NCBI GenBank assembly: GCA_963823555.1
Contig: CAWGMA010000001.1
Span: forward strand, 128,001 to 192,000
Source: Candidatus Eiseniibacteriota bacterium
Lineage (GTDB): Bacteria > Eisenbacteria > RBG-16-71-46 > CAVPCR01
Reading direction: 5' to 3'
Length of the DNA stretch: 64,000 nucleotides
How positions within the stretch are numbered: the stretch's first letter is position 1; each line of letters starts with the position of its first letter. This document shows, piece after piece, positions 39,344-44,103 of the stretch. The notes under the pieces are model-generated. The model made no database searches and had not been told where the DNA came from. It worked only from the letters and a program-made list of their open reading frames with translations. A program made the translations under genes and the position numbers.

Positions 39344-39568
39344 GTGAACGTCTGGTTCGAGGTCGGCGCCCGAATGGGGAGCACGGGCGCGATGATGGAT
39401 GATGGATGCGGAAAGGACCACCTCACTCGCAACGCCAAAGGATATCACACCTTGTCAAAGCTGGCCGGTTCCGCCGGCCGGCCTGATCGCCTTGGAAGGG
39501 ACCCGCCTCTTTGCCCAGGGCCAGGAAGGTCCTGTTACAGGCAGGTATAAAAAAGCTTGCGAACCCCG

Positions 39569-39596
39569 TTGACCCCCTCCGTTCCTGGGCTATGCT
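39569..39596 (+). promoter_or_regulatory. Candidate sigma70 promoter of the peptide/activator operon
   Basis: TTGACC-N16-TATGCT in the divergent intergenic region. Confidence 0.6.
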
Positions 39597-39732
39597 GGTG
39601 CTGAGGGAGAAGTTCGCTCACTGACGGCGAGTGACTCCTCCGCGAGGTCCCCACATCCTCTCGAGGTTGTTCCCGGTGGTGCCGTCGAGCGAAAGCCGCA
39701 GTTCGCTGCGGGCGAAGGAGTTGACTTACCCC

Positions 39733-40068
39733 ATGTGTCGCCGAACGAGGTACTTGCTAATCCCTGCGTGCCTCCTCCTTCTCACGGCCGTGGTGCCCCC
39801 TCAGCCGGCCTTGGGCAATGGTGATCCAGACGAGGTCATCGAAAAGACCGAACCGTTTCCGCCGCTTCCACCCTTCCAGATTCCACCCTCGTCACCACCC
39901 GCGCACGGGTTCCAGGGAGACCCGGACGAGCTACCGGACGGGGGCTACGACGATGAGGGGGGCTCCGGAGGGCCGACGCTCCCCGGAGACAGCGGTATGC
40001 GCGGAACCGGAGACTGGATCTTCATGATGCTCAACGTGATGAGGCTCGCATTCTCGGCCGCGTATTGA
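39733..40068 (+). CDS. Small secreted peptide precursor with two GDPDE motifs (111 aa)
   Basis: GAAGGAG RBS; signal peptide MCRRTRYLLIPACLLLLTAVVPPQPALG; GDPDE at 39820-39834 and 39916-39930; hydrophobic C-terminal helix. Confidence 0.75.
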   Translation: MCRRTRYLLIPACLLLLTAVVPPQPALGNGDPDEVIEKTEPFPPLPPFQIPPSSPPAHGFQGDPDELPDGGYDDEGGSGGPTLPGDSGMRGTGDWIFMMLNVMRLAFSAAY

Positions 40069-40123: not shown

Positions 40124-43100
40124 ATGTCGGAGATCAAGGTGAGGAAGGGGAAACCCGCCGCCCCAGAGGTCGCAGCCTGCGCCCCCGGCTCCCGGGCCGA
40201 GTTCGAGAAGCTTCTCCAGCTCGGCAATGGGCAGTTCGAGTGTGATAACCGCAAGGAGGCGCTTGCCTTCTATGCCCAGGCCTGGGAACTCCTGTTAGCG
40301 GCGGACCGGGCAGCAACTTCCGACCCCGGAGACCTCCCGGGGATGGCCGGAGAGGCCGTCTTCCTGTGCCGCCGGATGGGCGAGGTCCATCAGCTGCGCG
40401 GCGACTTCGAGGCTGCCCGCCATGTCCTCGCCGAGGCCGAGCGCCGGCTCGAGGAGCATCCTGACGACCATGAGCTGGGACAAGTTCTCGCCATCCGGGG
40501 CTCGATCGCGATCGACCTCGGCCGGTTCTCCCAGGCTCAACGCCTTCTGAAGCGGGCATATGAGCTCCTCAAGAGCTCGCCCGACCATCACGCCTTCGGC
40601 GCCCTCGAGCGCCGCCTCGGCAAGCTGTACCTGCGCATGGGACGGCCACAGGAGGCCCGGACCTACTTCGAGAGTGCGCTCGCCACCTTCCGTCGCATCG
40701 GCGACCAGCGCGGCATCGCCGGCACGCTCAATAACCTCGGCCTCATCCACAAGCTCGCCTGCGAGTGGATGGAGGCGGTCCGGGTCATGGAGAAGGGCCT
40801 CGTTCTGAACGAGATCCTCGCTGACGAGGCTCAGATCGGCGCCCTGTGCATCAACCTCGGTGTCGTGCACATGAAGATCGGCCAGTGGCAGCGGGCTGAG
40901 GAACGCCTCGACCGGGCCATCGCCTGCAATGCGCGCATCGGCAACCGCCGTGGCCTTGCCAACGCGTACATCGCCCGGGCCAATCTGGCGCTCCGCCTTC
41001 GTCAGTGGCGGGATGCCGAGCGCTGGCTCGAGCAGGCGCTCGAGATCGCGCACCCCCTCGGCCTCGTGCGGGCCGAGGGCTTGGCCCTCGAATCCCTGGG
41101 CGATCTTGCCGCCGATCGCGGCGACTTCGCACGTGCCGAGGAGCATCTGCGCGCCGGCCTCGAGCTTGCCCGCCCGCTGGGCGCGGACAACGAGCTCATC
41201 GGGGAGCTCGGGCGGCGTCTGGGGGAAGTGTGCGCTTCCACGGATCGTCCCGACGAAGCGCTGGCCCTCGTTGAGGAAGCCATCCATATCGCGCGCAAGG
41301 TCGGTGATCTCTACGAGGAGGCACTCTGTCATCGCCTCTTCGCGCGGATCCACGGTCTCCGGGGAGAGATCAAGCTGTTCCGCGAGCATGCGGCTCAGAT
41401 CATCGGTCGTCTCTCGCATATGGGGGAGAGGCGCGAGCAAGCGCGCACCTTCCTGGCCCTCGGCGATGTCTGGATGGCCCAGCGCTCCGCCCTTGCCGAG
41501 TCATGGCTCGAGGAAGCGCAGGTTTCCTATCAGCGGGCCGAGACCCTGGCGCTCGGCCTCGAGCTGCGCGGGGAGGCGGCGCTCGCCTCGCTCCGACTCG
41601 CCGAGCTCGAGCGCGAGCAGGGGCGGCTCGACCAGGCGCTTGTACGCATCGGGAGCGCGCTGCACCAGGCCGGGGAAGGAGAGCCGGCGATCCGTGAGGA
41701 GCTCGTTCGCCTCCGGGGCGAGGTCGAGGACGCCATGGCGGCCGGCTACGGGCCGAAGGCGGCCGAGCGCGAGGCCTTCCAGGAAGTCACGAAGCTCTAT
41801 TCGGGTCGCGCCGATGTCGATGCTGTGCTCGAGAACCTGATTCGTCTGATCGAGGAGCGGTCGGGGTCCGACCGGGCCTTCTGCGCCTGGGCTCCCAAGG
41901 AAGCGCCGCCAGCGGTCTGCGCGACCACCGGTTTCCGGCGGAGCGAGGCCACACGGATCCTGAACGGGCTCGGGCGCGGGCTCGTGGCCGAGCTCATCGC
42001 CGATGATCGTCCGCTCATTGCCACCGATCCCGAGGATGATCCCCGACTCCAATTCATCGGCCATCGCGATGGCAGCTCCGCTCTCTCCATAGCCGTCATG
42101 CCCTTCCAGATCCCGGATCAGGTACAGGGCATCGTCTATGTGGAGCGCTCACCGGGCAATCATGCCGGCCCCTATCGCGCCGCCGATATCGCTCTGCTCT
42201 CGATGCTCACGAACGTCGTAGCCATCGCCGCCGTCGAGGCAGAACGCGCGCGCCGGCTCACCGAGGGGGTAGCGGCCGCCGACCGTCCGCCGGCCCTGGC
42301 AAGCATCATCACCGGCAACTCGGAGATGCTGCGCATCCTGAACCTGCTCGAGCGTGTCGCATCGACGCCGGCGAGAGTCCTCTTGCTGGGCGAGACCGGA
42401 ACCGGCAAGGGGCTTCTCGCCAGCGCATTGCATCACTTGAGCCCACGGGCGCAGGAGCCGTTTCTGCAGATCAACTGCGCGGCGTTGCCGGAGCCGCTCC
42501 TCGAGAGCGAGCTCTTCGGGCACGTGCAGGGAGCGTTCACCGGCGCCATCCGGGAGAAGCTCGGGCTGTTCGCGGAAGCAGGGGCCGGTACCATCTTCCT
42601 CGATGAAATCGACAAGATGACGCCTTCCATGCAGGCGAAGCTCTTGCACGTTCTCGACCGCCAGGAAGTGCGGCTCGTCGGCGACACCAAGTGGCGCCAG
42701 ATCCACTGTCGAGTGGTGAGCGCTGCCAACGTCGACCTCCGCGAGCTCATTCGCAAGGGCGAATTCCTGGAGGATCTCTACTACCGGCTGAATGAGTTCT
42801 CGGTGCTGGTGCCCCCGCTTCGCGATCGCCCGGATGATGTTCTGCTCCTGGCGCGGCACTTCATCGAGAAATCAGCGGTTCGGATGGGGCGTCATCCGCG
42901 CGGCATGGATCCGGAGGTCGAGCGCCTGCTCGTGAGCTACGAATGGCCGGGTAACGTGCGCGAGCTCGAGAAGACCGTCGAGCGTATGGTCGTACTTGCG
43001 ATGGACGATGCCCCGCTCGGGCTCGACCTCCTGCCCGAGGGTCTTGTCAGCCCGTCCTCATCGCTCAAGGCGGGCACGACGTTGCGCGAGGAGATCCGTC

Positions 43101-43285
43101 GACTCGAAGCCCGGATGATCGGCCAGTCGCTCCGCGAGAACGGATGGAACAAGCTGCGCACGGCGCGCGCGCTCAAGCTGTCCTATCCCGCTCTGCTCAA
43201 GAAGATCCGCGAGTATGATCTCGATCGTCGCCGAAACGGCGGCAGCGCTCCCTCCCGACGCAAGAGCGTTAACAGTCAGATATAA
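40124..43285 (+). CDS. Sigma54-dependent enhancer-binding protein with TPR and GAF domains
   Basis: Many TPR-like repeats (TLNNLGLIH), GAF region, GETGTGKG, ELFGHVQGAFTGA, FLDEID, WPGNVRELE, Fis-type HTH. Confidence 0.93.
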   Translation: MSEIKVRKGKPAAPEVAACAPGSRAEFEKLLQLGNGQFECDNRKEALAFYAQAWELLLAADRAATSDPGDLPGMAGEAVFLCRRMGEVHQLRGDFEAARHVLAEAERRLEEHPDDHELGQVLAIRGSIAIDLGRFSQAQRLLKRAYELLKSSPDHHAFGALERRLGKLYLRMGRPQEARTYFESALATFRRIGDQRGIAGTLNNLGLIHKLACEWMEAVRVMEKGLVLNEILADEAQIGALCINLGVVHMKIGQWQRAEERLDRAIACNARIGNRRGLANAYIARANLALRLRQWRDAERWLEQALEIAHPLGLVRAEGLALESLGDLAADRGDFARAEEHLRAGLELARPLGADNELIGELGRRLGEVCASTDRPDEALALVEEAIHIARKVGDLYEEALCHRLFARIHGLRGEIKLFREHAAQIIGRLSHMGERREQARTFLALGDVWMAQRSALAESWLEEAQVSYQRAETLALGLELRGEAALASLRLAELEREQGRLDQALVRIGSALHQAGEGEPAIREELVRLRGEVEDAMAAGYGPKAAEREAFQEVTKLYSGRADVDAVLENLIRLIEERSGSDRAFCAWAPKEAPPAVCATTGFRRSEATRILNGLGRGLVAELIADDRPLIATDPEDDPRLQFIGHRDGSSALSIAVMPFQIPDQVQGIVYVERSPGNHAGPYRAADIALLSMLTNVVAIAAVEAERARRLTEGVAAADRPPALASIITGNSEMLRILNLLERVASTPARVLLLGETGTGKGLLASALHHLSPRAQEPFLQINCAALPEPLLESELFGHVQGAFTGAIREKLGLFAEAGAGTIFLDEIDKMTPSMQAKLLHVLDRQEVRLVGDTKWRQIHCRVVSAANVDLRELIRKGEFLEDLYYRLNEFSVLVPPLRDRPDDVLLLARHFIEKSAVRMGRHPRGMDPEVERLLVSYEWPGNVRELEKTVERMVVLAMDDAPLGLDLLPEGLVSPSSSLKAGTTLREEIRRLEARMIGQSLRENGWNKLRTARALKLSYPALLKKIREYDLDRRRNGGSAPSRRKSVNSQI

Positions 43286-43416
43286 CTCGGATTGCCATTC
43301 CCAGTTTCTTTGAACACAACTGGTTGTGGCTGTCGTTTCGTTTCGATGGAAATTAAGTTGATAGTTTGCGGCCGGTACTTGAAGACAAGGTCCACCCGCA
43401 GCAGCCGCCCCACATG

Positions 43417-43471: not shown

Positions 43472-43487
43472 TGGCATGCTTCTGGCT
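43472..43487 (+). promoter_or_regulatory. Sigma54 -24/-12 promoter 1
   Basis: TGGCATGCTTCTGGCT, exact GG-N10-GC; predicted +1 near 43498. Confidence 0.72.
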
Positions 43488-43496
43488 GAGGACAAT

Positions 43497-43782
43497 GCGT
43501 GGAGTGGGGACCTCCTAGGACTCCCTGGGGTATTCGGAGTCTCGAGGCCTCCGGACAGATCTCTTCCTCAACTGCAGCCTGGGCTGTCCGGAGTATCTCG
43601 AACCCGAATACCTCGGGGGTCCGAATTCATCATCTTGGTGTGGATGAGCTGAACCGCCTGCTCATCCGATCACCTCTGAATTCGCCACTCCCCGCATGGC
43701 CAAGGCTCCGGCGGTTCAACAAGCGTCTTGGCATCGGGGGGTGTGACGCGGCCTCGGGTTCGTCGACCCGAGGCCGTTTTCT
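43497..43782 (+). ncRNA. Unrecognised structured ncRNA (~285 nt)
   Basis: Closing stem 43495-43507/43685-43697, two long internal hairpins, a further hairpin, 9-bp loop-loop complementarity, flanked by a sigma54 promoter and a terminator. Confidence 0.75.
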
Positions 43783-43785
43783 TCT
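43749..43785 (+). terminator. Intrinsic terminator
   Basis: CGGCCTCGGGT-N6-ACCCGAGGCCG followed by TTTTCTTCT. Confidence 0.88.
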
Positions 43786-43963
43786 GGATTCTCCAATCCT
43801 CCTGCTCTGCCCACCCCAGTGGTTTCGTGTGGCGAGCGCGCTACGTGGCGTGACCTCGCTGCCGCGCTGATTCCTCGCCTGCCTGTCTCTCCAGGTTCCA
43901 TGTCCTTCCCGTATCCATTGTCCCGATAATGAGTTGAGTCTGTCCATCGGCCCTTCGGGAGGC

Positions 43964-43979
43964 TGGCATTCGAAATGCG
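43964..43979 (+). promoter_or_regulatory. Sigma54 -24/-12 promoter 2
   Basis: TGGCATTCGAAATGCG, GG-N10-GC, upstream of the lipoprotein gene. Confidence 0.68.
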
Positions 43980-44103
43980 TTGGGGGATCGGTGCGGGTGG
44001 CCGCAGGGCCACCCGACCGCACCGGCAAGGTGCCGCGCGGGGAAGGGCAAGCATCGCCTGCGGGCGGCCCGTTCAGGCCCGTCCGCGAAGGGAGGTGACC
44101 CCG

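Follow-up and report, generated by a model that had tools for sequence, protein, structure and literature searches.

Organisation of the locus

To begin with, a stretch of 64,000 nucleotides from an Eisenbacteria genome was analysed (hereafter the window, whose numbering is used unless a contig is named), in which a small-protein gene, the gene of a sigma-54 activator and a small RNA gene were found one after another on the forward strand (Table 1). The small protein matched no family in a Pfam search, and its 37 homologues showed an invariant G and a nearly invariant D in the GDPD motif, with an otherwise low column identity (16%). Judged by these features, the exported-looking 111-aa protein is a candidate signal precursor. 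The TPR-GAF-sigma-54 activator had a strong match in 197 of the 206 genomes of the class, a set that makes up the whole Eisenbacteria phylum sample. Moreover, −35/−10 boxes comparable to those preceding the small-protein gene were recognised, by sequence only, upstream of the small-protein leader in many loci. A second sigma-54 promoter-like site was located downstream of the RNA, which is therefore a unit of its own.

Two other features of the surroundings were recorded. The segment 43964-46316 holds a lipoprotein-like gene without a Pfam family and a DUF4384 gene, which are found 3′ of the RNA in most families and have their own sigma-54 promoter-like site with no enhancer palindrome nearby. 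The same genome also carries a second, shorter TPR and sigma-54 activator-like gene at G000:C1:1719568-1721718 (−).

Table 1. Predicted features of the small RNA locus, in window positions
Feature	Position	Strand	Remarks
Activator-binding palindrome (predicted)	39546..39562	n/a	Just 5′ of the small-protein promoter
Sigma-70-like promoter of the small-protein/activator genes	39569..39596	+	Found by eye; 16-nt spacer
H1 target site (predicted)	39644..39658	+	In the small-protein mRNA leader; C-rich hairpin loop ~90 nt before the start codon
Small-protein gene	39733..40068	+	111 aa; signal-peptide-like start, G-D-P-D motif, amphipathic C-terminal end
Sigma-54 enhancer-binding protein gene	40124..43285	+	TPR-GAF-AAA+-HTH by Pfam; ORF open from 40109
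Upstream activating sequence of the RNA promoter (predicted palindrome)	43347..43363	n/a	Motif search
Sigma-54 promoter of the RNA	43472..43488	+	−24 GG at 43473-4, −12 GC at 43485-6
Small RNA	43498..43785	+	About 285-288 nt; 5′ end inferred from the promoter
H1	43501..43515	+	Near-invariant 5′ hairpin, G-rich loop; predicted pairing seed
H2 (= P2)	43518..43622	+	Long imperfect hairpin; shape conserved, sequence family-specific
H3 (= P3)	43623..43683	+	Hairpin in this genome only; loop complementary to the H4 loop
H4 (= P4 extended)	43686..43743	+	7-nt loop core common to G001 and L119 only
Terminator-like hairpin and U tail	43748..43785	+	Hairpin 43748-43777; similar one in 6/9 order-level homologues
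Second sigma-54 promoter-like site	43964..43980	+	Serves the downstream lipoprotein-like gene, likely start 44104

Distribution and control elements of the RNA gene

A strict pattern comprising the sigma-54 promoter and H1 at near-fixed spacing was found in 173 of the 206 Eisenbacteria genomes, in 172 of them as a single copy, while the reversed pattern used as a control gave no match in any of the 206. Furthermore, 90 loci were selected by the activator alone (30 matches returned by the activator search and 60 picked from its match list), and all 87 with enough downstream DNA had H1 3′ of a sigma-54 promoter, recognised by pattern in 84 and by eye in 3. An earlier sequence-only reading had proposed gathering homologues downstream of orthologous activators, and both searches returned them. 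No paralogue of the RNA was found within its own genome.

A palindrome scoring at least 8 was present 150-260 nt 5′ of H1 in 84 of 86 loci, with a motif that had been trained on those same regions, and the mean best score was 17.7 vs. 0.2 in shuffles. In the genome of 4.6 Mb only three sites reached a score of at least 13, two of which lie at the RNA locus, one 5′ of the RNA and one 5′ of the small-protein promoter, the latter (39546..39562) scoring best. Before the small-protein gene, a palindrome of at least 8 was detected in 18 of 86 loci and in none of the controls.

Transcription and fold of the RNA

Two sediment metatranscriptomes from two studies yielded contigs 100% identical to the locus over 43515-43698 and 43561-43757, of which the second bridges H2 to H4; these are unstranded RNA-library contigs without ends or level, of depth <3, that may hold DNA. 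In the same two runs, no other part of 19.9 kb had a covering piece longer than 24 nt; the runs were chosen via the RNA stretch, so that this comparison has no ranking value.

The region folds far better than its shuffles (z = −6.6, 0/100), in line with the sequence-only reading, which had held that GC content alone would hardly explain its structure. That reading had also proposed a series of helices (P1, P2b, P2c, P3a-c and P4), all of them pairable where it had placed them; its P2 helix appears in the folds once bulges are allowed, and its strong U-tailed terminator corresponds to the terminator-like hairpin and U tail detected here. On the other hand, the arrangement of these helices as a multi-stem junction closed by P1 was not upheld. 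When the transcript is started at 43495-43501, five consecutive hairpins (H1, H2, H3, H4 and the terminator) are favoured in the ensemble, with a P1 probability of <1% and 43686-43743 forming one extended hairpin. The P1-closed fold is 3.3 kcal/mol worse than the five-hairpin fold, yet it is the minimum free energy structure when 43490-43790 is folded; in the folding model the two are nearly equal, and this holds for this genome alone. Among the homologues, P1-like pairing was better than with shuffled 5′ ends in 0/9 order-level sequences (in the best case, 2/40 shuffles did as well) and passed the shuffle test in 1 of 82 others. P1 was also considered as a conserved internal anti-seed and rejected, as it did not rise above shuffles.

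With regard to known classes, no match at the gathering score of Rfam was obtained in the window, an outcome that the same reading had named as favouring novelty, nor in 20 homologous loci with Rfam 15, whose families include Qrr, Pxr, CsrB/Rsm, 6S and SRP; at E ≤ 10, Rfam 15 gave five weak unrelated matches in the window, none of them credible. No tRNA or tmRNA was found in the window either. A divergent 6S or SRP RNA was discarded, the genome having a normal 6S RNA (88 bits) and a small SRP RNA (72 bits) elsewhere. Two coding explanations were likewise set aside: a 7-codon leaderless peptide over H1, because third positions are invariant, the G run gains or loses single bases and the start is not conserved; and a 123-aa ORF (43499-43870), which has an early stop in G001. 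The proposal of an undescribed, sigma-54-driven and highly structured non-coding RNA of ~285 nt is thus supported, and on comparative grounds it is an uncatalogued small RNA gene that occurs phylum-wide in Eisenbacteria.

Conserved and variable parts among homologues

In H2, 19 of 36 pairs had changes on both sides among nine order-level sequences, a number reached by 0/500 shuffles, and controls with slid partners gave 1-7 such pairs. H2 followed H1 in the loci read, with a family-specific sequence. From these comparisons, the conserved parts of the RNA are H1, which the sequence-only reading had buried in P1, and H2. What comes after them varies in length: many homologues show a U run after H2, and others are 100-350 nt longer.

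Several families presented further elements. In f4-f7, f10, f14, f16 and f17, the RNA ends, 150-530 nt after H1, in another conserved hairpin, whose G-rich loop contains GGA (L043, L049-L070, L088-L099, L285-L291); this hairpin is absent in this order and is similar to a CsrA site or to a second seed. Family f12 (L032, L034, L038, L045) has a remodelled H1, no CsrA was found in it, and about 250-400 nt after the promoter there is another conserved hairpin RNA, which has a U tail of its own. In f8 and f14 (L026-L028, L030, L031, L033, L036, L044, L047), the RNA lacks a clear terminator and continues into an AAA-type ATPase gene, which takes the place of the lipoprotein-like gene.

Complementarity of H1 to mRNAs of the same locus

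When the locus was scanned for self-complementarity, recurrent matches of 10-13 nt to H1 were found 3.3-3.9 kb upstream. In the window, the 11-mer complement (39644-39654) occurs at only two places, H1 and the leader of the small-protein mRNA, and the predicted H1-leader duplex has 14 bp with one bulge and a net cofold energy of about −17.5 kcal/mol. The target tests were performed on the 86 loci with both the small-protein and the activator genes in view. Across them, the complement of the 6-mer core had 41 matches at −125 to −76 of the small-protein start, no other 25-nt bin having more than 5, and a second cluster lay over the ribosome site or the first codons of the activator gene. The mean best duplex reached −20.4 kcal/mol in the leader and −19.6 in the activator start region, compared to −16.0 in coding blocks and −17.6 further upstream.

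The best duplex beat all of the ~11 coding blocks of its own locus in the leader for 43/86 loci, at the activator start for 39/86 and at either for 56/86, ~1 in 12 being expected per window; this test was passed in 14 of 17 families. The real seed beat 20 shuffled seeds in 28/86 leaders, 13/86 start regions and 1/86 control blocks; the small-protein leaders are C/U-richer than the coding controls. Moreover, 20 held-out loci were fetched afterwards, of which 17 were usable: 14/17 beat the coding blocks, and the result against shuffled seeds was weaker (5/17 and 2/17, control 0). In f13, a family previously unsampled, the site was present in 3/3 held-out loci. These counts overstate independence, as family f10 alone supplies 30 of the 86 loci, and the same applies to the codon test below. 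At 30/86 loci, including all five of f15, f3, f4 and 11/16 of f9, neither site rose above background. The activator start region of this genome does not rise above background (−16.5), so that the leader site is the only one that applies here.

Changes in the seed were followed by changes in its sites. In seed-swap tests, the own variant was the best on its own locus for the f1 U-variant (2/2), both f6 variants, f11 and the f12 start region (4/4), and the AA seed variant of f16 has its match between the Shine-Dalgarno sequence and the ATG in L285 and L286. The exceptions, where the own seed was not the best, were G003 (a near tie), L098 and the best-of-both score of L032. In addition, three single-genome seed variants, L094 and L095 (G008, G015) and L096, each have their own matching site and are, as sequences, the clearest natural compensatory pairs. 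A G-U wobble occurs at the leader site of G001. In f10 and f17, whose loci are kin to one another, the prolines at activator codons 5-8 were encoded by CCC in 63/69 cases vs. 352/1035 elsewhere (35 loci). Overall, the conserved pairing looks like an intermolecular one, predicted between H1 and mRNAs of the same locus.

Targets elsewhere were also sought. Genome-wide, no enrichment of seed complements near starts was found among 3425 crude gene calls, and the small-protein leader site would rank about 8th in such a scan. An RpoS-like sigma-70 gene (G000:C1:1398786-1399934 (−); L245, L248-L277) was noted as a candidate output target: a site complementary to H1 occupies +15 to +27 in G000, G001 and G002, as a 13-nt island over codons 6-10 in these three f1 genomes, where neighbouring codons vary; a similar site lies near the start in G003 and another beside the Shine-Dalgarno sequence in G009. 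Of its orthologues, 8/30 loci beat all 20 shuffles, and most other families do not. A rubrerythrin-like candidate was rejected, its gene being present in only 2/41 genomes.

Proposed mechanism and alternative explanations

These comparisons point to a sigma-54 small RNA encoded behind a TPR activator, the H1 seed of which is predicted to bind the small-protein leader and the activator start, likely repressing both in a negative feedback; we regard this reading as the probable one. As H1 matches the sites in the activator and small-protein messages and changes together with them, the RNA likely dampens its own signalling circuit. The activator would drive transcription of the RNA, and the G-rich loop of H1 would nucleate on the C-rich loop of the leader, after which the weak 4-bp stem of H1 could open to give an 11-14-bp duplex with the target. 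Pairing at the activator start would mask either the Shine-Dalgarno region or the first codons, and small RNA sites in such positions point to repression. At the leader, a duplex ~100 nt 5′ of a partly folded ribosome site could block a standby site or invite cleavage, as in the case of IstR-1 on tisB. H2 and the 3′ hairpins might contribute stability and additional family-specific contacts. The least certain parts are the role of the small protein, which the TPR domain may sense as an exported signal in a quorum-sensing-like manner, and that of the RpoS-like sigma factor as a possible output target in this order. A wider version is speculative and, taken as a whole, rather unlikely: peptide quorum sensing of a new build throughout the phylum, in which an exported GDPD peptide would act within the cell on the TPR-GAF activator, whose almost sole output would be one Hfq-independent small RNA with a G-rich loop that kisses C-rich loops of the peptide and activator messages and switches off the RpoS-like sigma factor, seed and targets co-evolving phylum-wide.

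The same pairing could have the opposite sign at the leader, the RNA stabilising or activating the signal mRNA (autoinduction) while repressing the activator. In this genome the leader site (39644..39658) lies near the mRNA 5′ end and adjoins an anti-Shine-Dalgarno stretch that pairs with the Shine-Dalgarno sequence, and the cofold with H1 rearranges that helix. However, blocking the leader site opened the predicted Shine-Dalgarno sequence in only 1/58 leaders and closed it in 5/58, so unmasking (anti-antisense activation) is unlikely at the leader, and this positive feedback is improbable. By analogy, we infer repression through blocking of the standby site as the leader effect.

Still less probable is that the RNA serves mainly as a CsrA sponge through the GGA in the H1 loop, together with the 3′ GGA hairpin of several families. 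CsrA, which binds GGA in hairpin loops (PMC13443453), occurs in 179/206 genomes and FliW in 9/41, though not in this one; H1 has one exposed GGA, and f4-f7, f10, f14, f16 and f17 add the GGA-containing 3′ hairpin. Against this, f8 keeps H1 intact in 8/8 genomes with CsrA in 0/8, and three near-complete f8 genomes gave no CsrA match over the cut-off at E ≤ 10. Moreover, only one of the seven GGA triplets is mostly unpaired in this RNA, and a sponge leaves the co-varying complements unexplained. CsrA binding may nevertheless be a second role of the RNA. In f12, where H1 is changed, CsrA was found in 0/5. As a separate observation, a single-copy csrA gene (G000:C1:192979-193128, L111) is located ~21 kb downstream in this genome, in which no fliW was found, and CsrA without FliW is common in the phylum.

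The sequence-only reading implied a compact folded RNA with a function resting on the P1-closed junction and an internal 9-bp kissing loop. The loop-loop complement itself stood: 43650-43658 and 43710-43718 match by Watson-Crick pairs throughout, the two loops are mostly unpaired (0.88 and 0.79), their duplex has −15.4 kcal/mol, and the RNA-library contig that bridges H2 to H4 spans both of them. By permutation, such a match arose in 20/200,000 trials for these loops and in 28/50,000 for any loop pair. Its conservation and the covariation expected of the helix did not stand, as the complement is confined to this genome and no covariation was seen in homologues. In 132 homologous transcripts, with ends set by a crude rule and nine chance pattern matches outside the family dropped, the longest complement between unpaired stretches measured 6 nt in 23 cases and 7 nt in five, with no case of 8 nt and the 9-nt match here only; an extrapolation of this tail by the analyst gives ~0.3 nine-mers by chance. 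Neither of the two closest relatives, G001 (cut after H2 in that set and examined separately at full length) and L119, has the H3 loop, despite both retaining the H4 loop core. From this distribution, H3 is a lineage-specific insert. Many homologues also stop at a U run immediately 3′ of H2, and P1 shows no conservation. A function built on this fold is therefore very unlikely; the kissing loop is not the defining feature of the RNA, to judge from its relatives, and may form in this one species.

It is just as unlikely that a single regulator binds H1 and its complements as DNA sites just after both promoters, with the hairpins as a by-product, even though H1 forms an inverted repeat immediately following the start and the leader site lies 15-30 nt after the promoter in many loci. 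Such sites would hardly have the strict orientation of the leader sites, antisense on the mRNA strand in 38/86 loci vs. sense in 2/86, nor the G-U-compatible changes, nor would they track start codons and lie inside coding sequence, and H2 covaries. Finally, the RNA might act in cis on the downstream gene, as a leader or attenuator, a reading suggested by the AAA-type ORF that begins shortly after H2 without a clear terminator in f8 and f14. This is the least likely explanation of all, since here and at most loci the RNA is set apart from the gene that follows by a terminator and another sigma-54 promoter, and the downstream gene changes between families while H1 stays.

Comparison with known systems

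The negative feedback by H1 pairing was compared with known circuits. Searches of the open literature returned no such RNA by title or abstract start for Eisenbacteria (small RNA, non-coding RNA, quorum sensing, sigma-54), and only unrelated work for the combination of sigma-54, small RNA, TPR and peptide. If the reading is right, this is the first candidate regulatory small RNA with named targets for an uncultured phylum, and the natural compensatory changes across families are rare evidence for an RNA-mRNA pair. The circuit may also link peptide signalling to sigma-54 in a two-membrane bacterium.

A small exported-looking protein gene beside a TPR regulator recalls RRNPP systems, and an RNA as the output of a peptide circuit recalls agr/RNAIII. 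In contrast to both, the phylum here has two membranes, the activator is a sigma-54 AAA+ protein and peptide binding is hypothetical. The CsrB/RsmZ sponges likewise have GGA in hairpin loops, and CsrA is present in most of the phylum; however, the RNA has one or two loop GGAs rather than many, and H1 persists in genomes that gave no CsrA match. On tisB, IstR-1 blocks a standby site located about 100 nt upstream; as is predicted for the RNA here, it pairs ~100 nt 5′ of a structured ribosome site on a neighbouring small-protein mRNA (PMC6690012). The differences are that the protein here is predicted to be exported and has a conserved acidic motif instead of being a membrane toxin, that the predicted pairing is 9-14 bp, and that the RNA is transcribed from the same strand further downstream.

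Pxr of Myxococcus xanthus (PxrK/PxrR) is also a small RNA downstream of a sigma-54 regulator gene, with conserved 5′ stem-loops, a variable 3′ stem-loop and longer and shorter forms (PMC10217877; PMC5684412), although its input is a two-component system and the RNA described here has no Rfam match to Pxr. The Vibrio RNAs Qrr1-5 share with the present RNA the sigma-54 promoter, the enhancer-binding protein and a multi-hairpin structure. Beside the enhancer-binding-protein gene, a sigma-54 promoter and an enhancer site were indeed found, as was conserved complementarity to the activator and signal-pathway mRNAs, in this genome at the leader site only. Qrr RNAs depend on Hfq, and Hfq (PF17209) was not found in this genome, which is 92.5% complete. 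LuxO together with sigma-54 directs the synthesis of the Qrr RNAs, which repress luxO and luxMN (PMC3730234); this feedback on the mRNAs of the activator and of the signal pathway has its predicted counterpart here. Unlike Qrr, the RNA shows no Rfam or sequence match to that class, is single-copy, has a small protein as its candidate signal and has a TPR-GAF input in place of a phosphorylated receiver. By analogy, the RNA works most like LuxO-Qrr and its layout resembles PxrR-Pxr, being a member of neither by Rfam; the layout would repeat the feedback logic of Vibrio LuxO-Qrr with unrelated parts, apparently without Hfq.
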